Positions 1,884 through 26,286 of a stretch of DNA of 30,147 nt are shown here, one piece after another. The notes under the pieces were generated by a model, which saw only the letters and a list, made by a program, of their open reading frames with translations, ran no database searches and was not told the origin of the DNA. Position 1 is the first letter of the stretch. Every line of letters begins with the position of its first letter. A program made the translations under genes and the position numbers. The DNA is from Candidatus Magasanikbacteria bacterium RIFCSPHIGHO2_02_FULL_50_9b (GTDB lineage Bacteria; Patescibacteriota; Patescibacteriia; Magasanikbacterales; 2-02-FULL-50-9b). The DNA lies in the NCBI GenBank assembly GCA_001782975.1, contig MFQD01000018.1:9658-39804 (forward strand), in the 5' to 3' direction.

Positions 1884-1957
1884 GGGCCCGTAGCTTAGTT
1901 GGTTAAAGCACAGTGCTTATAACGCTGGGATCGATGGTTCGAATCCATCCGGGCCTA
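1884..1957 (+). tRNA. tRNA-Ile(UAU)
   Basis: Cloverleaf: acceptor GGGCCCG/CGGGCCT, D arm GCTT..AAGC, anticodon stem CAGTG/CGCTG with loop CT-TAT-AA (TAT at 1918-1920), T arm GATGG-TTCGAAT-CCATC, discriminator A; CCA not encoded. Confidence 0.92.
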
Positions 1958-8760: not shown

Positions 8761-8806
8761 GGCGGTGGCTGGGGTTCTACGGGATCCTGGCTGCCACCCT
8801 TTTTTA
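8761..8806 (+). terminator. Intrinsic terminator of the dehydratase-like gene
   Basis: GGTGGC/GCCACC stem with inner GU-rich stem capped by cUACGg, followed by T-run. Confidence 0.75.
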
Positions 8807-8808
8807 AT

Positions 8809-8837
8809 TTGACAGCATGTGTGATTTTATTTAATAT
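8809..8837 (+). promoter_or_regulatory. sigma70 promoter of toxin-like gene 8866
   Basis: TTGACA-17-TAATAT. Confidence 0.7.
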
Positions 8838-8865
8838 CGCCGCATAACAAAACATAAAAGGGGGT

Positions 8866-9282
8866 ATGTTTGGTGCATACAAAACAAAAGCAAATAAGAT
8901 TACCGGCATCACATGGGCTGAAATTGGAAAAAAAGCGATGATGCATTTTAAAATTATTGCGGCGCGAACCAAGCGACGGCCGTATGTGCGGTCTGCATAT
9001 TTTCGTAAGGAGAAAATTTTTCTTGAATTATTCTGGCATCATTTGTACGAAAAGCAAAACGTACGAGATAAAGCGCGTCGCGCAAAATATTTTTTGTGCG
9101 CGATAGAACTGATCGAACATTCGCGAATTGCGCCAACGGTAAAGGAAAATCCAAACCGGCACGGCGAGATGTTATATCGATTTTTTGGTACGGCGGCAAA
9201 CGGTGATGCATTCGTGGTGCAAATAAAAGAGGTGAAGCGTACGGGCGAAAAATGGTTGATGTCTGTGTTTCCGAAAGAATAA
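8866..9282 (+). CDS. Small basic hypothetical protein, possible BECR/RelE-like RNase toxin
   Basis: 138 aa, very basic, C-terminal beta pattern LYRFFG..FVVQIKE..WLMSVFP; fold assignment is inference. Confidence 0.55.
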   Translation: MFGAYKTKANKITGITWAEIGKKAMMHFKIIAARTKRRPYVRSAYFRKEKIFLELFWHHLYEKQNVRDKARRAKYFLCAIELIEHSRIAPTVKENPNRHGEMLYRFFGTAANGDAFVVQIKEVKRTGEKWLMSVFPKE

Positions 9283-9299: not shown

Positions 9300-9361
9300 T
9301 TAAAACAGAAAAAGGCATCCGCCAAGTTGTGGTGTATAAACCACGGAGGAAACCTTTCTCT
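9300..9361 (-). ncRNA. Predicted convergent small RNA 1 (candidate antitoxin)
   Basis: Minus-strand TTGACA (9392-9397)-18-TGcTATTCT (9368-9373); hairpin AAAGG/CCTTT with inner GTGGT/ACCAC; U-rich tail on the minus strand. Confidence 0.55.
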
Positions 9362-9397
9362 ATTTAGAGAATAGCACGGCACGCAAAATGTTGTCAA

Positions 9398-9446
9398 ATA
9401 AAAATCAGCCACCCGATCCGCGTGTTGAAGCGCGGGAAGGGTGGCT
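9398..9446 (-). terminator. Terminator of the yerC-astE-GNAT operon
   Basis: AGCCACCC (9407-9414)/GGGTGGCT (9439-9446), inner CCGCG/CGCGG, minus-strand U-tract. Confidence 0.75.
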
Positions 9447-9451
9447 TTGTG

Positions 9452-12746: not shown

Positions 12747-12792
12747 CAAGTTTGACGGCAACGGAATAATTTTGTAATATCTCTCCAACTAT

Positions 12793-13179
12793 ATGGAGGG
12801 GAAATTATTCGGTGAATGGAATTTTTTGAAACAACGATTGAGCGCTGAAGCGATTGCGCATTTTTGTCGTGAGCGAGAGATCTGGGTATGTTCGATTGGA
12901 AAAAATGTTGGCCGCGAACAAAACGGAAAGCGCGAAATGTTTCAGCGGCCGGTTTTGGTGGTGCGGAAATTCGGGAGCGGCATATTTTTTGCAATTCCAT
13001 TGACGAGTACCGTGAGATGCAACGATTTATTTCTGCAAATTAGCGGTGGATCATTTTTGGTTTTAAATCAACTTAAAGTTTTTGATATGCGGCGACTCAT
13101 TCGAAAAATGAGACGGCTGGATGAATGTGAGTTTGAGTATGTGATGTCACAAGTGAGACGCGTAGTGTTCGGAAAATAA
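12793..13179 (+). CDS. PemK/MazF-like endoribonuclease toxin (orphan)
   Basis: REIWVCSIGKNVGREQNGK..FQRPVLVVRKF..FFAIPLTS..LNQLKVFDMRRL; promoter TTGACG (12752)-17-TAATAT. Confidence 0.85.
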   Translation: MEGKLFGEWNFLKQRLSAEAIAHFCREREIWVCSIGKNVGREQNGKREMFQRPVLVVRKFGSGIFFAIPLTSTVRCNDLFLQISGGSFLVLNQLKVFDMRRLIRKMRRLDECEFEYVMSQVRRVVFGK

Positions 13180-13223
13180 TACGGCCGCCCGTGAAGGCGG
13201 CCTCGAACCCGATTGGGTAGTGT
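13172..13223 (-). ncRNA. Predicted convergent small RNA 2 (candidate antitoxin)
   Basis: Minus-strand TTGACT (13253-13258)-17-TATACT (13230-13235); ACCC/GGGT hairpin then GGCCGCC/GGCGGCC terminator (13183-13202) with minus-strand U-rich tail. Confidence 0.6.
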
Positions 13224-13323
13224 GAGTAGAGTATATGTGGAGTTGAGTTGGTAGTCAAATAGAAAATCAGCCACCCGACCCGCGCCTTGTCAAAAAATCA
13301 ATCATTCGTTACACTCGTTGCAT

Positions 13324-15182: not shown

Positions 15183-15221
15183 AGCCGTTACATCTTTGGG
15201 GGAGTGTGACGGCTTCATTTT
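15183..15221 (+). terminator. Intrinsic terminator
   Basis: AGCCGTTAC/GTGACGGCT stem followed by T-rich tract. Confidence 0.7.
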
Positions 15222-15281
15222 AATTTGACAGCGTGATTGATTTTGTTTAACATCGCACCATAACAAAACATAAGGGGAGGT

Positions 15282-15683
15282 ATGTTTGAAATCATCGAAA
15301 TTTTTTGTTCATGGTGTCGCCAGAAAATTGCGCTGCATATTGCCGAACACCAGCCGCTGTTGTTTAAGCAGGGCGAGGTGTGGTGGTGCAGTTTTGGCAT
15401 GAACATTGGCGACGAGTTATATGGCAAGGGCGAAAAATTCGCGCGGCCGGTGTTGGTGTTGAAAAAATTTAGCCGGAATATTTTTTTGGCGCTGCCACTG
15501 ACTTCGGTTGAACGATGCGGCTCGTGGTATGTGGAAATGGAATTGCGCGGCACGCGGCGATGGATTATTTTAAATCAATCGCGAACGTTGGATGCACGCC
15601 GGTTGCTCGAAAACGTCGGCACGGTTGATTTACAGACGCTGAATAATGTTCGCGAGCAGTTTATAAAATTACTGACCTCATAA
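15282..15683 (+). CDS. PemK/MazF-like endoribonuclease toxin (orphan)
   Basis: FKQGEVWWCSFGMNIGDELYGKGEKFARPVLVLKKF..LALPLTS..LNQSRTLDARRL; promoter TTGACA (15225)-17-TAACAT. Confidence 0.87.
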   Translation: MFEIIEIFCSWCRQKIALHIAEHQPLLFKQGEVWWCSFGMNIGDELYGKGEKFARPVLVLKKFSRNIFLALPLTSVERCGSWYVEMELRGTRRWIILNQSRTLDARRLLENVGTVDLQTLNNVREQFIKLLTS

Positions 15684-15756
15684 AATCCAATCGCGGCCAT
15701 TGCTGGCCGCGATTATTGGGTTTCCCCGAAGATGGGATCTCCGAATCGGAGATCGT
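15682..15756 (-). ncRNA. Predicted convergent small RNA 3 (candidate antitoxin)
   Basis: Minus-strand TTGACA (15786-15791)-17-TATATT (15763-15768); GATCTCCG/CGGAGATC hairpin and 11-bp AATCGCGGCCA/TGGCCGCGATT terminator. Confidence 0.62.
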
Positions 15757-15833
15757 GCGTTGAATATACTGCGGGCAAAAGAAGTTGTCAAGCACGCTGT
15801 TTTCCGCTACCATACCACTATAATTTCCAATCT

Positions 15834-17048
15834 ATGGCCAAGCCCCACACCGCGAAAATCTCCACCGACCCCGCAAAAATCTCCCAAATCCTAGACCGTG
15901 GCGTGGCCGAATGTATTGTACGCGAAGATTTGGAGGCCAAGCTAAAAGCCGGCGCGCCATTACGAATCAAATTGGGCATTGACCCAACGTCACCCAACCT
16001 GCATCTCGGCCGCTCAATCCCGCTGCTAAAATTGCGTGACTTCCAAGAACTCGGCCATCAAGTAGTATTCATCGTCGGCGACTTCACGGGCATCATCGGC
16101 GACACGTCGGACAAGGAAGCAGAGCGCCCGATGCTGACAGAGGCGGACATTGCGGCCAACCTCAAAACATACGTCGCGCAGGCGGGCAAAATTATTGACC
16201 TTGACCGCGCGGAAATTCATTTTAATTCGACGTGGCTCGGCAAACTGGGCTTCAAGGAAATTGGCGAGATGGCGAATCATTTTAGCGTGGCGGAATTTAT
16301 CGCGCGCGAAAACATTGCAAAGCGTCTCGACGGCGGCAAGCGCGTGAGTTTGCGCGAGGTGCTGTATCCCTTGATGCAGGCGTACGATTCGGTGGCGATC
16401 ACGGCCGACGTCGAACTCGGCGGCACTGACCAGCGTTTCAATGTGCTCGCCGGCCGTTCGCTGCAACCATTCTATGGCCAGCCCGCGCAAAACATCATTG
16501 TGAATCCGCTCATCGCCGGTCTCGACGGCCGCAAAATGTCGTCGTCGTGGGGCAACACCATCAATTTATTGGACGAGCCCGCGGACATGTATGGCAAGGT
16601 GATGTCGCTCTTGGACGAACTGGTTTTGGAATATTTTATGAACGCAACGCGCATTGATCTCGCCGAAATTGTCGAGATGCGTTCTGCGTTGGCTGCGGGC
16701 ACGAATCCGCGCGATTTAAAAATGCGTTTGGGCCGCGAGATTGTTGGGATGTACTGGGGCGCTGCGGCGGCGGGCGCGGCAGAGGAACATTTTCGGACGG
16801 TGCATCAGCAGGGTGGCGTGCCGGAGGATATGCCGGTGGTGAAAGTTGATTGGGTGCAGGCGGCGTTGGTTGATGTGTTGGTTGAGGTTGGTTTTTGTTC
16901 TTCGAAAAGTGAGGCGCGGCGGCAGATTGAGGAGGGCGGTGTTAAGGTTGATGGGGTTGTGGTTGAGGATGTTGCGGCGATGGTTGAAGCGAAGAAAGAG
17001 GGGGTTGTGGTGCAGAAAGGGAAGAGGTTTTTTGTGAGGATTGTTTGA
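15834..17048 (+). CDS. tyrS: Tyrosine--tRNA ligase
   Basis: KLGIDPTSPNLHLGR, YPLMQAYD, ELGGTDQRFN, GRKMSSS, C-terminal S4 domain (SKSEARRQIEEGGVKVDG). Confidence 0.97.
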   Translation: MAKPHTAKISTDPAKISQILDRGVAECIVREDLEAKLKAGAPLRIKLGIDPTSPNLHLGRSIPLLKLRDFQELGHQVVFIVGDFTGIIGDTSDKEAERPMLTEADIAANLKTYVAQAGKIIDLDRAEIHFNSTWLGKLGFKEIGEMANHFSVAEFIARENIAKRLDGGKRVSLREVLYPLMQAYDSVAITADVELGGTDQRFNVLAGRSLQPFYGQPAQNIIVNPLIAGLDGRKMSSSWGNTINLLDEPADMYGKVMSLLDELVLEYFMNATRIDLAEIVEMRSALAAGTNPRDLKMRLGREIVGMYWGAAAAGAAEEHFRTVHQQGGVPEDMPVVKVDWVQAALVDVLVEVGFCSSKSEARRQIEEGGVKVDGVVVEDVAAMVEAKKEGVVVQKGKRFFVRIV

Positions 17049-17095
17049 TAGTAAGGAATGTATTATGAGGAAGCGTTTTACTATATGATCAAATT

Positions 17096-17557
17096 ATGAA
17101 TTTTGAAGAATTAGTTAAATTTCTTAACTCCACATTTTTTAACACAATTGCTGTTGGAATTGTAGGTGCTTTCGCGTATTGGATAGGAAAAACACAAGCA
17201 AAAATTCAAGACAGTGTGGAATTATATGCATCCTTGGGTATCATGAAGGATATTGCAACTCAAAACGAGAGTAAAATTATTTATATTCAAAATGTTGGAA
17301 CTCGCGTACTTTATTTCGATTCATATGAATTTAATGGAAAGCCTTATGAATTAAATGGTCAGGTGCAAGCACCAACATGCTCTGGAGCAATAAATAGTTT
17401 TTATCGAATTAGTCTGCCTATTAACGGTGAGTGCCATGTCAGCCTGTTTGTTTATTTTCATGATGCAGAAAATAGAAAATGGAAATCAAAAATAATCTGT
17501 GATTTTCAAAATCAGTGGTGGGATATCAAAACCTATCCGAGAGAGTTTTTAAAATGA
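17096..17557 (+). CDS. Hypothetical protein with N-terminal TM helix (AT-rich islet)
   Basis: FFNTIAVGIVGAFAYWIG anchor; low GC versus tyrS. Confidence 0.65.
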   Translation: MNFEELVKFLNSTFFNTIAVGIVGAFAYWIGKTQAKIQDSVELYASLGIMKDIATQNESKIIYIQNVGTRVLYFDSYEFNGKPYELNGQVQAPTCSGAINSFYRISLPINGECHVSLFVYFHDAENRKWKSKIICDFQNQWWDIKTYPREFLK

Positions 17558-17647
17558 TAAGTTTGTTCGGGCATATTTTGATTAAATAAAAAGCATGAGC
17601 GAACGAGGGTCGCCATACCCTCTTCGCCAGTTTTAAAAAAATAATGC

Positions 17648-18349
17648 ATGAAAGAAGTAAGGATGATAAAAGATTTTAAAAAACTGCTTAAGGATTTTGA
17701 ACCGATGGTTAAGGATCCTGATTTTTTGCGCACCGGCCGGTCGATCACAAATTTTTCGTTAAGACCGAGAGAAGCATGGGCTAATTGGTTATTGTGCGCT
17801 GTTTTTCGAAAATTAAATGGAGATGAGGTAACTTTTTCTGATGATGATAAATGTGATGGAATAATAATAGATCGAAAAACTGGGCAGTGCGTCGAAACGG
17901 AGCATGTGGTTGCAATGAATTTTCCTGATCGAAAAAAACAGCTACCAAAGGGAGAGGCGCGTATCATTGAAGCGATTAATCAGAAAATACAGAGAGGGGT
18001 AGATTATGCTGAAGGTAAGTTTTTGGTTGTATTTTTTGACGGCACTGATTTATGGTATAGAAATAAAGTTAGAGAGGCGATAAATGGAAGACATAATTTT
18101 AGGGCTATCTATCTTGTTGGACACGCCACTTCTGGTCAAGACGGATATGTATATACCGTTACTGAGTTACATGAAACCTTCTCGGTTTCCTATAAAGTTG
18201 AGATAAGCGATGATTTTACAGATTTTCGTGTTTCAGAGATTAGAGATAATCCGATGGCGAAATATAAATTCATCAAATATTTGATAAACACCATGCGGTG
18301 GATTGCAGCAAAGCTGATTTGTTTCGGTCGGAGAAATCGCGGCAGCTGA
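17648..18349 (+). CDS. Hypothetical protein, possible PD-(D/E)xK-like nuclease fold
   Basis: 233-aa AT-rich ORF; DDKCDGIIIDR..VETEHV acidic pattern; fold call is weak inference. Confidence 0.55.
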   Translation: MKEVRMIKDFKKLLKDFEPMVKDPDFLRTGRSITNFSLRPREAWANWLLCAVFRKLNGDEVTFSDDDKCDGIIIDRKTGQCVETEHVVAMNFPDRKKQLPKGEARIIEAINQKIQRGVDYAEGKFLVVFFDGTDLWYRNKVREAINGRHNFRAIYLVGHATSGQDGYVYTVTELHETFSVSYKVEISDDFTDFRVSEIRDNPMAKYKFIKYLINTMRWIAAKLICFGRRNRGS

Positions 18350-18511
18350 CAAGGGGGACGGCGGATTTATTTTGCGAAGATTTTTTATCATGCGCGCGGG
18401 TGCTCTCATGTTTTTGATAGTACCATCGACACCCCTTCAAATCTCCCGTACACTTCCTTGCTAAGCGAACTCATTCGCTAGCAAACTACGGGGGTCACTC
18501 GATATGTGAAT

Positions 18512-18540
18512 TTGACCCTCGAAACATTTTCTGCTATAAT
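18512..18540 (+). promoter_or_regulatory. Strong sigma70 promoter
   Basis: TTGACC-17-TGcTATAAT. Confidence 0.85.
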
Positions 18541-18546
18541 GCATTT

Positions 18547-18753
18547 GTAAGAGTCACAACTTAATCCTTAGTGCCGGGACAATGGCACCGCTTAGATCCT
18601 GCCCGAATGGGCAAGGCAACCGGGGAAATCTGTCGGGAGCCAGATGGACTATAGCGACTAACTACAAAGTGGTTGGGAGATTTCATTCACAGCTGTGCGC
18701 CGAGTGGTGCGCGCGGCATGGTGGATTTAATTTCCGAGCCACCTTTATTTTTT
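18547..18753 (+). ncRNA. ssrS: Probable 6S RNA (about 200 nt)
   Basis: Own promoter and GGTGG/CCACC + T-run terminator; long-range rod pairing ATCC/GGAT, GTGCCG/CGGCAT, GCACCGCTT/GAGTGGTGC; CGGGAGCC and 3' GCGGCAT motifs resemble known 6S RNAs as I recall them. Confidence 0.55.
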
Positions 18754-18760
18754 GCGGCAT

Positions 18761-19543
18761 ATGTATACTGTAAATGTAGATGATTATTTCCACACACCTC
18801 TTATATCACCTGAAGATGTTGCGGAGCACCGACAAACTGCTGGGACGTTTGAGAGTTATGATGACGCGCTTGCGTATGCGCAAGGCATTGTGGAATCTGT
18901 GTATCGCGGGGCGTTGATTGCGGCTGAAGGCGATGATCAGATGATGGGGGTGTATTGGGCACATCATGGCGAGGATGCATGGATTTCTCCAGCCCTTGAT
19001 GGGCGTGAACGCTTTTCTGCGAGCGATTACTTCACACAATTGTGTGAGACGCCAGAACACCGTGCGAGTGTGCTCGTCCTTACGCGCATCCCGGGCATGC
19101 GCAAGGGCACGACGGACAAGCCCGCATACACGCATTCGTTTCATGTGCGGGATTTGCTCGAGGAACATGGATACGGTTTCGACGTTTGTCTGGCGGGGCT
19201 CCTGCATGACATTGTCGAGGATGGCGGCGTGTCTTTGGCGGAGTTGCGCGCGGCAGGGTTTAGCGAGCGCGTCGTTGGGCTCGTGGATTTGTGTTCGCAT
19301 GACGCGTCGATTGAGGGCAACGATGCGCGTTGGGTTGTTATGATTGCGCGATTGGTGCAGGCTGACGACTCCGATGCCTGGGCAATTAAGGTTGCGGATT
19401 TGCTGGATAATTTAAGGGATTCGGGGACGATGGAGGTGGAGTGGAGGGAGTGGATGATGGGAGTTAAGAGGGCGTTGATGGGGAGGGTGGCGAGGGGAGT
19501 GGAAGAATTTCTTGTAAAAAGCTTATCGAAGCTCCCTAATTGA
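18761..19543 (+). CDS. HD-domain protein, RelA/SpoT-type small alarmone hydrolase-like, with N-terminal extra domain
   Basis: PAYTHSFHV, AGLLHDIVED, IKVADLLDNL in the C-terminal 160 aa; about 100-aa unrelated N-terminal domain. Confidence 0.8.
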   Translation: MYTVNVDDYFHTPLISPEDVAEHRQTAGTFESYDDALAYAQGIVESVYRGALIAAEGDDQMMGVYWAHHGEDAWISPALDGRERFSASDYFTQLCETPEHRASVLVLTRIPGMRKGTTDKPAYTHSFHVRDLLEEHGYGFDVCLAGLLHDIVEDGGVSLAELRAAGFSERVVGLVDLCSHDASIEGNDARWVVMIARLVQADDSDAWAIKVADLLDNLRDSGTMEVEWREWMMGVKRALMGRVARGVEEFLVKSLSKLPN

Positions 19544-19550
19544 TAATGAC

Positions 19551-19826
19551 TTATTTGTTGTGTTTTTTATCGATGTAGTCCATTAGTTCATGTTTAGATT
19601 TTGATATTTCTGATTTTAATTCGGTTTTAAGAGACAGGATTAAATCAGCAGTCTCCTTTCGAAGCATAAGATTATATCTCAGGAATTCCATGATCTCATG
19701 ATGACCCTCTTTAAGGGCGTTCAGGCTTCTTTCAATCACGCAAAATTTAGTCGTAGCATTTGTAATGAATTGCTGTAAGACTATCCGTAAATTCAAAGAT
19801 CGTGACGAAACATCTGGGTTGTTCAT
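19551..19826 (-). CDS. Hypothetical coiled-coil protein
   Basis: LKTELKSEISKSKHELMDYIDKK, same style as 11127-11555. Confidence 0.55.
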   Translation of the reverse strand: MNNPDVSSRSLNLRIVLQQFITNATTKFCVIERSLNALKEGHHEIMEFLRYNLMLRKETADLILSLKTELKSEISKSKHELMDYIDKKHNK

Positions 19827-20322
19827 AAGACTAAAAAGATAAATTAAGCACCTTACTACTGGGTGCCATAATTATGGTATCTTGTCAATAGCAAGGGCTG
19901 TGGAAAACTAGGCATGCGATTTCAGACTTTGCTTTCTGCACTGGTTGGATAATTTTTTTGAGGTTTAAGAAGAGTAAACTTAGTGGACTTGACACAGATA
20001 TTGCAGTTTGATCTAAGCAAGCGCATACTATCAGAGTTCGTTGCACATCCCAATTTATTCTCTGTTTAGAGCCAGAGAAAGCGTCATTCAATCCTAATGC
20101 ACACAGGGGATTGACCATCAAAAGTGCTACCTTGCCGAAACGAGAGTTTCGTCGGGTGCTCTAACACTGCCGACGGACTGTTTAGACAGCGTGGGCAGGG
20201 TAGACGCTTTTGGTGGTTTTTCATTTTTCGCTTGACGATTCCCGACGGGTTTAGGAAGTATTTGACCGTCGGGAGCACTTAAGCTCCGAGTGACTGCCTT
20301 CGCAGTTGAAAATTACTGGTTT

Positions 20323-20463
20323 ATGCCATACATTTTCCGGAAGTGCACCACCATCAATGGCGTGTATCGCTGTAAGCGCAAAGGCGTATTTCGCTTTTGG
20401 GTGGATAGTGAAAAGCCAAACGATGGGAAACTAAAAGAGACCGACGAAAACGTCAGTCTCTAG
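20323..20463 (+). CDS. 46-aa small basic protein missed by the ORF track
   Basis: MPYIFRKCTTINGVYRCKRKGVFRFWVDSEKPNDGKLKETDENVSL; followed by a plus-strand terminator at 20473-20518. Confidence 0.5.
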   Translation: MPYIFRKCTTINGVYRCKRKGVFRFWVDSEKPNDGKLKETDENVSL

Positions 20464-20521
20464 TAGTTTCGCAATCAAAGCCGCCGTTGTTCTTAGCGGG
20501 ACGCGGCGGTTTTTGATTTGT
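20428..20521 (-). ncRNA. Predicted antisense RNA overlapping the 3' end of the 46-aa ORF
   Basis: Minus-strand TTGACA (20551-20556)-17-CACAAT (20528-20533); terminator hairpin 20436-20461 whose single C/A mismatch becomes G-U only on the minus strand, followed by UUUAGUUU. Confidence 0.5.
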
Positions 20522-20891
20522 TCGGGCATTGTGTATTAAAAGCGGTTTTTTGTCAAGTATGAAGTCGCCCGACTCCCAATGTATTGTTAGTATAACACAA
20601 GTTCTCTGGGGATAACACTATTGCCACATTTTATAACAAATCAGGATTAATGTTACTAAAATAGCTCCTAATAAGTATCCAATTTGTTTGAAATAGTGCG
20701 CAAGATCCCCTCGCACAAGATTGAGTAAACCTTTTGTTTCGTAGACTGATTGAAAAATAGCTTCTTGTGTTGTGTCTTGATTTTTTTCCATAGTACTTTC
20801 ACTATATCACACACGTATGTCTCTATAGGATAAGTGTTGAAAACTCTGTCACTATGGCATTTGTTTGCATTTTCAACTAATATTAGTCAGT

Positions 20892-21239
20892 ATGAATACT
20901 CTTGAAGATTTGACCGCCAAAATTACTACATTTCGAGATGCACGCGATTGGAAGCAATTTCATAATCCAAAAGATTTAGCATTATCACTAGTATTGGAGG
21001 CAGCTGAGGTCATGGAGCATTTTCAGTGGAAAAATGAAGATGAGATTAAAAAATATTTGGTTTCAAATAAAGCAGCTATTAGCGAGGAGCTTGCAGATGT
21101 CTTATATTGGGTGCTTTTGATGGCGTATGATTTAAATATCGATATTGGCACCGCAGTTGAAAATAAAATGCAGAAGAATGAAGAAAAATATCCAGTAGAA
21201 AAAGCAAAGGGGAAGCATACAAAATATACTGATCTTTAA
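20892..21239 (+). CDS. MazG-like nucleotide pyrophosphohydrolase
   Basis: FRDARDWKQFHNPKDLALSLVLEAAEVMEHFQW..EELADV..KYPVEKAKG. Confidence 0.92.
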   Translation: MNTLEDLTAKITTFRDARDWKQFHNPKDLALSLVLEAAEVMEHFQWKNEDEIKKYLVSNKAAISEELADVLYWVLLMAYDLNIDIGTAVENKMQKNEEKYPVEKAKGKHTKYTDL

Positions 21240-21242
21240 GAT

Positions 21243-23108
21243 ATGATCGTTTACCAGTCAACAAAGTTAGGGTTTTTAGAGGATGCTTCAAACGGAATTG
21301 AAGATGTAATAAGAGATCAAGTAAAAGAAAAATTGAATATTAATGTTCAGGTCGGTAGCAGTGAATATAATTCATGGAAAAACTCATTAGGAGATGCCAT
21401 GTATAAAGTGATGCAGACCAGTACAATTCCAGATGATTCAGGAGTTGCGATTGAATATTCAATTCCACGCACAAAAAATCGCATCGATTTTTTAATTACA
21501 GGACAAGACGACCATGGACATGAAAAGGTAGTTGTGATTGAATTGAAACAATGGACGAACACGCGCCTCACTGATAAAGATGCAATGGTAGAAGCGACTT
21601 TTAGGTATGGTCATATAAGTGAAGAGCTACACCCGTCTTATCAAGCGTGGTCCTATACAACTTTGCTTAATGGATTTAATGCAACAGTTTATAATGAAGG
21701 AATTCAATTAGAATCGTGTTCATACCTACATAATGAGATTGATGACAGTGTTATCAATCATGATTTTTATAAAAGCTACACAGATCAGTCTCCTGCGTTT
21801 TGTAAGGGTGATAAGGAAAAATTGCAAAAATTTATTGCTCAATACATTAAGTATGGAGATAATAAAAAAACATTATTTCGAATTGATAATAGTGCGATTA
21901 GACCATCAAAAGCATTAGCAGATAGTATTGCATCGATGCTTAAGGGTAACGATGAATTCATAATGATCGATGATCAGAAAATTGTTTATGAAACAGCTTT
22001 GTCCTTGGCTCGAAGTTCAAGTCATGAAAATAAAAATGTACTTATTGTAAATGGAGGTCCTGGAACCGGTAAATCTGTAGTCGCTATTAATTTATTGTCG
22101 GCTACCAAAAAAGGATTAAATGCACGCTATGTTACACGAAATTCTGCACCACGCTTAGTGTTTGAGTCAATGTTAACAAAAACTTTTAGGAGAACAGAGT
22201 TTTCAAACTTATTTTCTGGTACCGGATCTTTTGTTGATGCTGATGCTAATGATTTTGACATTCTAATAGTTGATGAGGCGCATAGATTAACAGAAAAATC
22301 TAATTTTTTTGGTAAGGGCGATAATCAGATTAAGGAAATAATAAATGCAAGTAAGTTTAGCATTTTTTTCATTGATGAAGATCAGAAAGTGACGCTTAAT
22401 GATATTGGTGAAAAAGGTGAAATTCGTAAATTTGCTGAGCAGCAAGGTGCGAAGGTTACAGAAATGTCATTAGAATCGCAGTTTCGTTGTAACGGTTCTG
22501 ATGGGTATCTTTCATGGTTAGATAATACTTTACAAATTCGTGAGACCGCCAATATTATACTGGATGATAGTGACTACGAGTTTTGTATTTTTGATGATCC
22601 TCAAAAATTGCATGATTTTATCATTGAAAAAAACAAAGAAAAAAATAAAGCTCGAATGGTGGCGGGATATTGTTGGAAATGGATTAGTAAAAAACAGCCA
22701 TCGTTAAAAGATATTGTAATAGGCGATTATGCAGCAACTTGGAATCTGAATTCGCATGGTCAAACATGGATCGCACAGCCAGACTCAGTAACTGAGGTGG
22801 GGTGCATTCATACGGCACAAGGTCTTGAGGTTGATTATGTCGGGGTTATTGTCGGGCATGATCTTACTGTACGAAATGGTAAAGTAATTACCGATGTCAG
22901 CAAAAGAAGCGGAGGAGATAAATCAGTGCATGGTTGGAAAGGATTAATGAAAGAGGATCCTATTGGAACAAAAGCTCGTCTAGATGCAATTATAAAAAAT
23001 ACATACAGGACCTTGATGACTCGAGGAATGAAGGGGTGTTATGTGTATTTTACAGACAAGGAGACGGAGGAATTTTTTAGGAAGAATTTAGGTTTGAATA
23101 AAATATAA
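21243..23108 (+). CDS. DUF2075 (Schlafen group 3-like) nuclease-helicase
   Basis: N-terminal RIDFLITG..VIELKQW nuclease motif; Walker A GGPGTGKS; IVDEAHRL; QFRCNGS; GCIHTAQGLE; YRTLMTRGMKG. Confidence 0.9.
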   Translation: MIVYQSTKLGFLEDASNGIEDVIRDQVKEKLNINVQVGSSEYNSWKNSLGDAMYKVMQTSTIPDDSGVAIEYSIPRTKNRIDFLITGQDDHGHEKVVVIELKQWTNTRLTDKDAMVEATFRYGHISEELHPSYQAWSYTTLLNGFNATVYNEGIQLESCSYLHNEIDDSVINHDFYKSYTDQSPAFCKGDKEKLQKFIAQYIKYGDNKKTLFRIDNSAIRPSKALADSIASMLKGNDEFIMIDDQKIVYETALSLARSSSHENKNVLIVNGGPGTGKSVVAINLLSATKKGLNARYVTRNSAPRLVFESMLTKTFRRTEFSNLFSGTGSFVDADANDFDILIVDEAHRLTEKSNFFGKGDNQIKEIINASKFSIFFIDEDQKVTLNDIGEKGEIRKFAEQQGAKVTEMSLESQFRCNGSDGYLSWLDNTLQIRETANIILDDSDYEFCIFDDPQKLHDFIIEKNKEKNKARMVAGYCWKWISKKQPSLKDIVIGDYAATWNLNSHGQTWIAQPDSVTEVGCIHTAQGLEVDYVGVIVGHDLTVRNGKVITDVSKRSGGDKSVHGWKGLMKEDPIGTKARLDAIIKNTYRTLMTRGMKGCYVYFTDKETEEFFRKNLGLNKI

Positions 23109-23230
23109 AATGGAGGATGGTGGCGGAGATGCTAAGGCTATTTTAGTCCTATTGGCCCTCATCGATTCTAGGGCATCCTAAAAGTACTCACTGCACATAT
23201 AAAACTAATTCTGGCGAACCATTTTAGATA

Positions 23231-24481
23231 TTACTTTTCACGTCTCTGCTGGTATCTTTCTTTGGAGTTTTTTTTCTGAAGACTTACATGATATTGATGA
23301 AAATCATCGGCATCGCGTTCCGGTTCCAAGGACATAGCGGGCATACATCTCCCTCTGCGATAGGGTCCGACTAGATTTGCAAATTCTCCTTTGAACCATT
23401 GTAGTGTGTCATGCTCAGTACGATTTTTTGTCTCTTTGCTATAGTCAGGATCTCCAGGCAATCGGCCATATTCATCCATCGCTCCACCAGTTCCATCTTT
23501 ATTTCCCCAAAATACTTCACCTCCCCAATTAATAGGCCGTGGATCAGGCATTAATAAATAACCATGACCATATCTATTCCAATCTGATTTAGAGATGAAT
23601 TTTTCTGGATATAACCATTCTTTTCGAGCTGCAGCAATATATCTGTGTGCTCGACTTTTAATAATGAAATTTATTTCGCGCACTTCTTGTTCGTTAAGAT
23701 GTCTCAAAATTTGCACTTCAGTAAAATTAAAAATGGCGTTGCGTAATGGATTCGGATTTGGCCGCAAATTAGTTGCACATTGATATGGATTTCGCATCCA
23801 AGAAAGATTAGTCAGGATAAGTACCTTATTCATAGAGAGTGGAAAAATTGTATGTGTGCCCTGTAGCCAAATTTCTGGATCATTATATTCTTTGCATCGC
23901 CATGAGCGAGGCCCACACTCTCTGTTATAAACAGTAACTGGGTGATCAGAAATAATAAATTTTGTATCGGACTGTGATGCATCAGCAATAAGCCACACAC
24001 ATTCCGTCCAAATGGCACAATGCAACTGTCTTAATCTCATCATCTGTCTAAGAATAGTATGTTTATCGCGCGTACCGAATTTACTTCCCAAAAATGAAAG
24101 TCCTTTTGGGGTTCGAAGTTTCTGGGCACTCATGTACAATAAAATGTCCTGGAGAGATGTGCCCCAATATCTTGCCGGATGTTCATATTGCTCAAAGTAT
24201 TCAACCGCTGGCCCACCCTTTGCATCAATGGCACCAAAAAAATATTTTTCGATATCCCTTGTTTCAATTCCGCGAATCGTAGTTGTGTACAAATCATCAG
24301 CTGTAAAGCATTTTCTTACACCCTGCCACTTTAAAGGCTCTACAATATGCGATACGCCGCGAGGATCCACAAACGTATCAGGTTTCATGTCTAATTGAAA
24401 CAGATGATGCTCTCCTGGCAACAGGAACCGTTTTTGGTACCATTGTGGCACATAATGATGGTTTCGATACTCGTCTGACAT
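23231..24481 (-). CDS. DUF4238 domain protein
   Basis: NHHYVPQWYQKRF N-terminus, FIISDHPV, FPLSMNKVLIL. Confidence 0.85.
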   Translation of the reverse strand: MSDEYRNHHYVPQWYQKRFLLPGEHHLFQLDMKPDTFVDPRGVSHIVEPLKWQGVRKCFTADDLYTTTIRGIETRDIEKYFFGAIDAKGGPAVEYFEQYEHPARYWGTSLQDILLYMSAQKLRTPKGLSFLGSKFGTRDKHTILRQMMRLRQLHCAIWTECVWLIADASQSDTKFIISDHPVTVYNRECGPRSWRCKEYNDPEIWLQGTHTIFPLSMNKVLILTNLSWMRNPYQCATNLRPNPNPLRNAIFNFTEVQILRHLNEQEVREINFIIKSRAHRYIAAARKEWLYPEKFISKSDWNRYGHGYLLMPDPRPINWGGEVFWGNKDGTGGAMDEYGRLPGDPDYSKETKNRTEHDTLQWFKGEFANLVGPYRRGRCMPAMSLEPERDADDFHQYHVSLQKKNSKERYQQRREK

Positions 24482-24490
24482 GCAACTAAG

Positions 24491-24823
24491 TTAAAAATTT
24501 TCTTCAACATCTTGAATCATTTTCTCTTTAGTTGTAAAAGCATTTTTTCCATCAAACCGAATAAAGTGATCATTAATTTGTGCTCTCAAAGATTCTTTAG
24601 TTAAATTAGGACATTGACTTTTTACATCCTTGATCTCGTATTTACCTACAATATAAGATCCGCTACATGAATCAACAGTTGTAAGTGATCCATCGGTGAA
24701 CCAACTGTATACATACATTCCTAAAATTATTGCGACAACAATTAAGATATTTCCTAATTGTACAAATAGAGCCTTCAACTTTGGTGACATATATATAAAT
24801 ATACAGTATTTGTATTTTAACAC
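24491..24823 (-). CDS. Hypothetical single-pass membrane protein
   Basis: LGNILIVVAIILGMYVYSWF helix then small Cys-containing domain; true start possibly MSPKL. Confidence 0.55.
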   Translation of the reverse strand: MLKYKYCIFIYMSPKLKALFVQLGNILIVVAIILGMYVYSWFTDGSLTTVDSCSGSYIVGKYEIKDVKSQCPNLTKESLRAQINDHFIRFDGKNAFTTKEKMIQDVEENF

Positions 24824-24879
24824 AAATAAGCGTTTTTTAGTGTTTATTTAGTTCTATCAATTTTCATCGATTATCTAGC

Positions 24880-25413
24880 ACGCCCGTCGACATTAAATCC
24901 TCAAGCAAGCTCGATAAGAAACACAAATTGCAGCTGACACTCTACGCGAACATCCTGGAACACATGCAGGGAGTGTATCCGAGCGAAACCGCAATCATCA
25001 ATCGCGATCACGAGCGCATTCCGTTCACCATCACACCAAAAGACCGCGCGGAAACGCAGAAACAAATCACCAACATTCTTGCAGTGATGCATGGCGAAAA
25101 GCCGCCGCTGCGGCTCACATCGAGTTGCAAAAATAGTCCGTGGTATCACGAGTGCGTGCAGGAGGCGCAGGCGGCCGATGACATTGCGCTCATCTACAAT
25201 CTCGACGCGCGGTCACATGATGCGCTTCGGGGCGCAGGGGTGCACACGATACATGACGCAGCGCGCATGGACGTTGCTGGTTTGCCGAAAATTCCGTTTG
25301 CGAGCGCCGCGAAACTCGAACGTGCGCGCGAGCACGCACACACGGGCCACGTGCGCTTTGATCCTGACTCGACCCGCAATCCTTTCCCACAATTTTTTTG
25401 GATCCAACCTTAA
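24880..25413 (+). pseudogene. Internal fragment of a TM0106-like RecB-family nuclease
   Basis: In-frame PVDIKSSSKLDKKHKLQLTLYA (from 24883) with no upstream ATG before the stop at 24838; C..SPWYHEC, HhH-like LRGAGVHTIHDAA; ends before the expected RNase H-like domain. Confidence 0.75.
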
Positions 25414-25416
25414 TTT

Positions 25417-25695
25417 CTACGCCGCGCAGGCGCCATCCGTGTCACTACATGTTGCCACCGACACACTCGCCGCAACCGCCGCATCAAAACACGCGAGCGA
25501 GCACGCTCGATACTCGCCATATTGCTGCGCCGCCAACAGCGCCGAGCACTTCGCGTCCCAGCACATCCAAAATTGTTGTTTCTGATAGTAATTCAAATCG
25601 TTGTAGCTTGCGGCGTACGCAATAGACGCGGTCGTGCCAGCGGCAAGCAGAATGCCAACAAATAAACCGGCCACAAGTGGAAAGCGGGTGCGCAT
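25417..25695 (-). CDS. Secreted Cys-rich protein, probably 3'-truncated
   Basis: Signal peptide MRTRFPLVAGLFVGILLAAG..AYA; ends four residues after CSDTDG; promoter TTGACA (25741-25746)-17-CATACT. Confidence 0.6.
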   Translation of the reverse strand: MRTRFPLVAGLFVGILLAAGTTASIAYAASYNDLNYYQKQQFWMCWDAKCSALLAAQQYGEYRACSLACFDAAVAASVSVATCSDTDGACAA

Positions 25696-25833
25696 AGATG
25701 TGGAAGTAAGTAAGGGGAGTATGGCAAGGGGGCGGGGGGTTGTCAATCAGTTGACATCCTCGCGCCCCTGTTTTAAAATCCCCGCATTAATCACTCGCGC
25801 ATCACGCGTGCGGTAACTTACAAAGGGAGGGGT

Positions 25834-26235
25834 ATGTTTGGAATCATAGAAATTTTTTGTGCATGGTGCAGACAGAAAATTGCATTACACGTGGACGAAC
25901 GGCCGGCAAAATTTTTTAAGCAGGGCGAAGTGTGGTGGTGCCGTGTTGGCAAGAACGTTGGCGATGAAATATATGGCAAGGGAGAAAAGTTTGCGCGTCC
26001 TGTACTGATTTTTAAAAAATTAACACGCACCACATTTTTGGCGCTGCCAATCACGTCCTTGCCAAAAATTGGTACGTGGTATGTATCCTTTGAGCTCTCT
26101 GGCATTTTTCGATCCGTCTTATTAAATCAGGCACGCACGCTGGACTCACATCGCCTGCTGGGCAGAATTGGAACACTCACAGACGACGATGCCAAAAAAA
26201 TTCGCACAAGTTTTTTGGAATTTTATGCCACTTAA
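25834..26235 (+). CDS. PemK/MazF-like endoribonuclease toxin (orphan), paralog of 15282
   Basis: Colinear 133 aa, 76/133 identical to 15282-15683 by hand count; promoter TTGACA (25751)-17-TAAAAT. Confidence 0.87.
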   Translation: MFGIIEIFCAWCRQKIALHVDERPAKFFKQGEVWWCRVGKNVGDEIYGKGEKFARPVLIFKKLTRTTFLALPITSLPKIGTWYVSFELSGIFRSVLLNQARTLDSHRLLGRIGTLTDDDAKKIRTSFLEFYAT

Positions 26236-26286
26236 AAAAATCTGCCTCCGCTGGAGAGCGGAGGTCGGTGGGTAACCCCAAATTAT
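26234..26286 (-). ncRNA. Predicted convergent small RNA 4 (candidate antitoxin)
   Basis: Minus-strand TTGACA (26316-26321)-17-TATAGT (26293-26298); CCTCCGCT/AGCGGAGG terminator (26245-26264) followed by CAGAUUUUUUU on the minus strand. Confidence 0.65.

Follow-up and report, generated by a model that had tools for sequence, protein, structure and literature searches.

Type I toxin-antitoxin (TA) systems with 3'-overlapping genes have their precedents in txpA/RatA and bsrG/SR4 of B. subtilis and in fst/RNA II, the par module of the E. faecalis plasmid pAD1. In type III systems (ToxIN, AbiQ/antiQ, CptIN, TenpIN), which also employ RNA antitoxins, the toxins share the MazF/Kid fold (PMC5086642). 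MazF/PemK toxins themselves, among the best-studied bacterial toxins, are described in reviews as controlled by proteins, namely antitoxins of the MazE type or, in the case of M. xanthus MazF, the regulator MrpC; their pairing with an RNA is not described, and full-text literature searches retrieved no paper on RNA antitoxins of MazF toxins. Here, a stretch of 30,147 nucleotides (nt) from Candidatus Magasanikbacteria bacterium RIFCSPHIGHO2_02_FULL_50_9b (assembly GCA_001782975.1, contig MFQD01000018.1, positions 9,658 to 39,804; referred to as the window, with positions counted from its first letter) was analyzed, in which three PemK/MazF-family toxin genes, T1, T2 and T3, are each faced at the 3' end by a small RNA (sRNA) gene on the opposite strand. 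The source genome comprises 780 kb in 47 contigs and is 88% complete. The small RNAs predicted opposite the toxins are very probably real, and they are probably the missing antidotes of these partner-less MazF/PemK toxins, since each such toxin is faced by its own RNA and since one hairpin of the RNA, P1, is nearly unchanged within the toxin branch.

In toxin family, fold and catalytic motif, the modules resemble the MazEF/PemIK (Kis-Kid) systems of type II. They are not type II, however, because there is no protein antitoxin: no mazE or pemI gene was found upstream or in the genome, the MazE family PF04014 had no match in the 88%-complete assembly, and inspection of open reading frames (ORFs) revealed none between toxin promoter and start codon, or downstream, inside the transcription units. 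In addition, MazE-partnered relatives lack the additional N-terminal helix of these toxins, in which a Trp and a Lys are invariant.

In common with type III systems, the modules have an endoribonuclease toxin belonging to the MazF/Kid/CcdB fold class, a structured small RNA, specific to the toxin family, as sole candidate antidote in place of a protein antitoxin, and a location among defence-type genes (PMC5086642). Known type III antitoxins are tandem repeats on the same strand upstream of the toxin, with a terminator before the toxin gene, and are cleaved by the toxin and adopt pseudoknot folds, whereas the present RNA is single-copy, has its own promoter, converges on the 3' end of the toxin gene and folds into two plain hairpins; by sequence, the toxin is PemK/MazF (PF02452) and not ToxN, CptN or TenpN. 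With no tandem repeats, an RNA that is not upstream, no evident pseudoknot and a toxin that is PemK by sequence, the modules do not belong to the type III families.

The 3'-overlapping type I systems match the modules in gene layout: the genes stand tail to tail, the short RNA is strongly promoted and the terminator is shared or abuts. The genome, moreover, encodes RNase III. Their toxins are membrane-acting peptides of less than 60 amino acids (aa), whereas the toxin here is a soluble RNase of 133 aa, for which reason the system is not a typical type I system; the paralogous proteins measure 127-133 aa, have the soluble MazF fold and are not small hydrophobic peptides. The overlap may also be as short as the terminator, the primary sequence of the RNA is conserved and no par-like pairing of the RNA with the translation start region was seen. 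No specific model is available in NCBIfam or PADLOC.

Toxin genes and their convergent RNA units

T1 (15282-15683, plus strand, 133 aa; PF02452, E 9e-13) is preceded by its own promoter at 15225-15253, as are T2 (25834-26235, plus strand, 133 aa; promoter 25751-25779) and T3 (12793-13179, plus strand, 128 aa, PF02452; promoter 12752-12780), for which no antitoxin ORF was found. The PF02452 scores of T1 and T2 are 48.8 and 43.4 bits at a curated cut-off of 23.1. The two proteins are 57% identical; their 76/133 identities in BLASTP bear out a count made by hand in an earlier note on this DNA. T3 is about 35% identical to T1 (tblastn). Genome-wide there are four PF02452 matches, the fourth paralog, T4, lying on another contig (locus L004). 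The nearest named relatives of the toxins come from Candidatus Magasanikbacteria and Nomurabacteria, in keeping with a CPR/Patescibacteria genome.

The AlphaFold2 (AF2) model of T1 (pLDDT 82) displays the canonical, SH3-like MazF fold plus an N-terminal helix, and its closest PDB structures are B. subtilis EndoA (MazF) and S. aureus MazF, with a probability of 1.0. The catalytic Arg-Pro (R55-P56) is invariant and the PLTS motif is kept. The N-terminal helix, which bears the invariant Trp and Lys, spans residues 2-20 and is specific to the subfamily; alignments to solved MazF structures and to MazE-partnered relatives from Leptospira plasmids start only at residue 26.

All four PemK paralogs of the genome carry a convergent RNA unit. 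The earlier note had assigned to the RNAs facing T1 and T2 a similar 14-nt motif just 5' of the terminator, and both motifs were located as claimed: the pattern TTYGGGGWWACCCA, which covers the two, has exactly two matches in the window, both of them minus-strand (15717-15730 and 26269-26282), against a chance expectation of 0.01, and two matches were obtained in 0/100 shuffles. In the RNA facing T3, the corresponding position is occupied by ACCCAAUCGGGU (13207-13218, minus strand). For this RNA of the more distant PemK, the earlier note needs correction: the position of the helix is common to all three but the motif itself is not, ACCC/GGGU replacing GGG/CCC. The motifs end 2-4 nt ahead of minus-strand intrinsic terminators, and upstream of each lies a minus-strand sigma-70 promoter with 10-11 of 12 consensus matches, ranking among the best promoter matches of the region.

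The units follow a common plan, in which a 5-8 nt A/U-rich leader is succeeded by hairpin P1, a junction of 1-5 nt, the terminator hairpin P2 and a U-tail, resulting in an RNA of 45-75 nt. The likely start is a conserved pyrimidine-A step 6-7 nt past the -10 box, and the terminator U-run is complementary to the toxin stop codon together with the A-run that follows. In the sRNA1 unit (15680-15791, minus strand), the promoter (15791-15763) is followed by a likely start at about 15756, an extra 5' hairpin (15754-15736), P1 (15727-15718, GGG-GAAA-CCC, within the motif at 15730-15717) and P2 (15715-15688), a two-way terminator whose tail runs over the T1 stop codon. The sRNA2 unit (26235-26321, minus strand) consists of a promoter (26321-26293), a likely start at about 26286, P1 (26280-26269, UGGG-GUUA-CCCA, within the motif at 26282-26269), the junction CCGA and the P2 terminator (26264-26245), with the U-run over the T2 stop codon. 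Both promoters have the form TTGACA, 17 nt, TATATT or TATAGT; that of the sRNA3 unit opposite T3 (13174-13258, minus strand) reads TTGACT, 17 nt, TATACT (13258-13230), with a likely start at about 13223, P1 at 13218-13207 (ACCC-AAUC-GGGU), the junction UCGA and the P2 terminator at 13202-13183, whose U-rich tail lies over the T3 stop codon. The RNA facing T4 (sRNA4) has the same arrangement, with GCC-UUCG-GGC as P1.

In comparison with shuffled controls, the folds obtained z-scores of -5.3 (sRNA1), -3.4 (sRNA2) and -3.7 (sRNA3), all four RNAs ranging between -3.4 and -5.3. The GGGG/ACCC element to which the earlier note had ascribed a structural role is thus a genuine structural element, namely hairpin P1 of the RNA. 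Its statement that the RNAs diverge outside the motif also held: when the T1 module is compared with the T2 module by BLAST, only the coding region is similar at the DNA level, and the rest of the two RNAs has accordingly diverged.

The sRNA1 promoter stands back to back with a plus-strand promoter-like site (9/12 matches) located just upstream of a downstream tyrS-like gene (both sites within 15763-15813), because the two share a near-palindromic TTGTCAA that serves the -35 box of the former and the -35-like box of the latter. The terminators of neighbouring minus-strand genes end directly upstream of two RNA promoters, at 26324-26352 that of sRNA2 and at 9399-9450 (minus strand) that of the RNA facing an unrelated 138-aa toxin-like gene, so that the modules are wedged against the ends of other genes.

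Conservation and spread of the RNA family

Twelve loci in or neighbouring the T1/T2 toxin branch, from several genomes and classes, contain the motif at the same place, as expected in the earlier note for homologous loci. Across these, the P1 arms UGGG/CCCA exhibit 94% pairwise identity, compared to 31% for the 17-nt promoter spacer, which served as neutral yardstick, and 38% for the P2 region. On the toxin tree, T1 and T2 fall into a clade of 8 (local support 99), all 8 of which have a UGGG/CCCA P1. The element is mostly kept in neighbouring lineages from other classes; a regular expression over-called it outside the T1/T2 group on the tree, and only the clade-level statement is used. As to the check proposed in the earlier note, covariation of GGG/CCC, the covariation comes from the wider family and not from these paralogs; inside the clade the element scarcely varies, with one compensatory change to GAG/CUC (L006). 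Judged from the 94% arm identity against 31% and 38%, the compensatory change and the clade of 8, P1 is conserved as sequence in the toxin branch and as structure across the family, a pattern that looks like the one expected of a recognition element. The interpretation offered in the earlier note is thereby supported in part.

T1 homologs were detected in 47 of the 201 sampled genomes of the order. A convergent promoter with at least 10/12 consensus matches is present in the 3' flank of 65 of the 71 homologs from the order, nearly all of which continue with the leader-P1-junction-P2-U-run plan. Across the phylum, the toxin occurs in 53/401 genomes, with the unit at 20 of 29 loci in other classes. 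P1 varies in length from 3 to 13 base pairs (bp), and its loops are mostly closed tetraloops (UUCG in 20/69). The junction is rich in C and in most cases includes CGA, frequently in the form CUCCGAGA; CGA/CCGAG is kept family-wide.

For the covariation analysis, a family covariance model, R2, was built on a seed of 7 sequences whose structure was written by hand, and 66 RNAs were collected in two rounds of search. In the model-aligned set, 92.6% of the cells are paired, compared to 67.1% in shuffles, with 0/500 reaching the observed value; two-sided changes occur at all 20 pairs, in 240 cells versus 63 in shuffles, and the covariation score is 0.43, as opposed to at most 0.07 with slid partners. 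In these alignments, both helices plainly survive complete sequence turnover. As a MAFFT alignment, 25 of the RNAs produced no RNAalifold structure, because the hairpin lengths vary. Searched against the window with filters off, R2 returned sRNA2 as top match (21.9 bits, E 0.0035) and, as weak matches of the same architecture, sRNA1 (12.9 bits) and sRNA3 (10.1 bits). The sole gathering-score match of Rfam in the window is a tRNA, and nothing in Rfam overlaps the RNA units at E up to 10.

A reverse search of the 201 genomes for a consensus promoter followed by CTCCGAG within 15-45 nt yielded 49 matches, about 26 of which are typical two-hairpin RNAs adjoining a PemK homolog or its remnant. Of the remaining matches, 20 were inspected and proved to be mostly unrelated promoters or leaders, e.g. 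of RNase P RNA and infA, and the typical RNA is therefore found only with this toxin subfamily or its remnants. Typical-looking RNAs with no intact adjoining toxin ORF were encountered in L109 and in L110, near a contig end, and as a degenerate copy in L111. In L109 (G119:C9, about 236-303 of the locus), the two-hairpin RNA has a consensus promoter and no intact toxin ORF facing it, and could be an antidote left behind after toxin loss. R2 further matched second copies near some toxin loci, in L039 (884-977 and 984-1047, in tandem), L030 (2556-2629), L053 (356-420) and L028 (1893-1957), which may mark further toxin-RNA modules or duplicated RNA genes.

A counterpart is found on the plasmid pVir of C. 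jejuni 81-176, where CJJ81176_pVir0047 (30634-31038) is a homolog of the toxin (33% identity, E 9e-11). The supplementary tables of Dugar et al. (2013, PMC3656092) list CJpv3, a 77-nt RNA detected by Northern blot on the strand opposite to pVir0047, from 31119 to 31043. Start-site reads amount to about 16000 for CJpv3 and to 28 for the toxin gene (PMC3656092), and the entries for CJpv3 in that source assign it no function and draw no link to the toxin. CJpv3 folds into three hairpins with P1 and P2 ordered as here, and ends 5 nt from the toxin stop codon. Its likeness to the present RNAs is architectural only, as R2 did not match CJpv3 at E up to 1. Plasmids of Helicobacter and Nitratiruptor have the same toxin-RNA layout.

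The RNA as candidate antitoxin

It is likely that the RNA acts as the antitoxin of its toxin by one route or another. As to the route, direct binding of the toxin appears somewhat likelier than antisense control at the 3' end of its mRNA, although as a mechanism it is itself put forward tentatively. Toxin gene and convergent RNA would each be transcribed from their own promoters, that of the RNA being strong, and the RNA would attach to the toxin protein itself and so neutralise it, in the manner of type III antitoxins. Recognition would fall to P1 and the junction, as an element suited to the toxin branch; as long as the RNA is transcribed strongly and without interruption, the RNase would stay silent, and once this transcription is lost the enzyme would be freed. 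Besides the constraint on P1 and the junction, this reading is favoured by the differing place of the toxin stop codon along the RNA among lineages, by the MazF/Kid fold of type III toxins and by an unrelated toxin family of the window that has a different, conserved convergent RNA of its own. The anatomy and its conservation, the covarying helices, the constraint on the P1 sequence, the lack of a MazE gene and the MazF fold with its catalytic residues rest on observation, whereas the antitoxin role, the binding of protein and a specificity set by P1 are what we infer. A bolder proposal, which we regard as possible and no better than doubtful in its entirety, is a new TA class in which a single-copy, self-promoted, tail-to-tail two-hairpin RNA binds a canonical MazF-fold RNase, with P1 and junction as an identity code that matches several paralogous pairs in one tiny genome, extending through Patescibacteria to plasmids of Campylobacterota.

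If these proposals are true, a whole subfamily of MazF toxins would be controlled by an RNA antidote, and the boundaries separating TA types I, II and III would become less sharp. Hundreds of MazF genes that look like 'orphans' in uncultivable ultra-small bacteria would find an explanation, and an RNA already seen on a Campylobacter plasmid would gain a function. As a short hairpin that is kept in a toxin branch while the rest of the RNA drifts, P1 is a concrete, mutable candidate for the specificity element, making cross-neutralisation between the paralogs directly testable.

Several observations weigh against protein binding. The RNA gene is always convergent with the toxin gene, abutting or overlapping its 3' end, a layout that would not be called for if the RNA acted solely by binding protein. 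In most loci, no terminator precedes the RNA gene on the toxin strand; the RNA is probably complemented in full by a segment of the toxin mRNA, and the genome encodes RNase III. No tandem repeats or tandem arrays adjoin any of the toxins, and the minimum-energy folds consist of two or three plain hairpins with tetraloops, as computed with programs that do not predict pseudoknots. The sRNA strand is only slightly more stable than the toxin strand (37/56 loci, 1.5 kcal/mol). The conservation of P1 within the clade could partly originate from constraint on the opposite strand or on the DNA, and the covariation figures are generous, owing to an alignment that was fitted to the model and to sequences that are related and not independent.

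A rival reading, which we hold to be rather unlikely, is a type I-like mechanism with the RNA as an antisense antitoxin acting in cis: transcription of the toxin gene would continue into the RNA gene, a duplex of 45-70 bp would form at the 3' end of the toxin mRNA, and the message would either be degraded by RNase III and 3' exonucleases or suffer interference from convergent transcription, P1 being no more than a folding or stability element. Such a mechanism fits the universal convergent 3' position, the RNase III of the genome, the RNA terminator U-run that complements the toxin stop codon and A-run, and the toxin strand, which in most loci has no U-tract after P2. It also fits those lineages in which the RNA overlaps the last toxin codons. 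Between lineages, the stop codon takes different places with respect to the RNA, downstream of P2 at one extreme and within the P1 loop at the other, and where it lies inside the RNA, P2 and junction are antisense to the last codons of the toxin; the assertion of the earlier note that the RNAs are not antisense to coding sequence is therefore correct within the window and fails in other lineages. What speaks against the antisense mechanism is the conservation of the P1 arms and the junction: an antisense RNA encoded in cis is automatically complementary to its target and can do without a conserved primary sequence. Antisense nucleation and loop-loop contact would moreover be poorly served by closed tetraloops and an A/U leader of 5-8 nt. 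In L035, L038 and L054, a separate two-way terminator between toxin stop codon and P2 would place the P1-junction-P2 module outside the toxin transcript and hence outside the likely overlap, and the module is still kept; likewise, P2 on the T1 side also scores as a plus-strand terminator, at which the toxin mRNA would end before P1. The toxin, a soluble 133-aa RNase, is not the small membrane peptide of type I systems. Pairing of the RNA with the 5' or translation start region of the toxin mRNA, as in par, gave no cognate signal (mean z 0.04, median rank 36.5 of 72).

A dual mode, in which one RNA would both bind the toxin and pair with the 3' end of the toxin mRNA, thereby holding down both synthesis and activity, would explain the obligatory convergent layout together with the sequence conservation of P1 and junction; requiring more assumptions than either single mechanism, it is considered improbable. 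Still less probable is that the RNA is no antitoxin at all, but a substrate, cofactor or regulator of the MazF-like protein, or a promoter-terminator unit shielding downstream genes from toxin read-through. The typical RNA unit of L109, which persists with no intact adjoining toxin ORF, would agree with this, whereas the catalytic residues of active MazF are kept in the toxins, no other antitoxin candidate was found, an insulator needs neither a strong promoter nor a covarying P1, and the RNA occurs only beside this toxin subfamily or its remnants. Chance resemblance of two GC-rich, terminator-proximal stretches, a notion to which the modest extent of the motif (14 nt shared, 11 of them identical) might lend itself, is given virtually no credence in view of the 0.01 matches expected and the recurrence of the element at the same place in the 12 homologous loci.

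Further candidate roles of the RNA were considered. An RNA-encoded peptide was rejected, as the leader AUG is absent in many lineages and the conserved junction falls into different frames. The idea that the conserved CUCC is an exposed anti-Shine-Dalgarno sequence was weakened, as these bases mostly close P1 and P2 in the folds and the same heptamer, where it follows other promoters, is part of unrelated leaders.

A second toxin family and a tRNA gene

The unrelated 138-aa toxin-like gene (8866-9282, plus strand), described as BECR-like in the earlier note, is likewise faced by a convergent promoter and an RNA of about 70 nt at about 9300-9400 on the minus strand. At 20/25 homologous loci in the order, the RNA of this family is present; its sequence is highly conserved, and its fold differs from that of the PemK-associated RNA. 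Two cassettes recur between the modules: 31 nt with 94% identity, spanning the -35 box and flank of two RNA promoters (13254-13284 and 9393-9422), and 71 nt with 86% identity, spanning promoter and leader of T1 and of the 138-aa toxin gene (15218-15288 and 8802-8872). Common to modules of different toxin families, these cassettes suggest that module parts have been shuffled between them.

The window also contains a tRNA-Ile gene with the anticodon UAU (1884-1957, plus strand), an uncommon bacterial way to read AUA.

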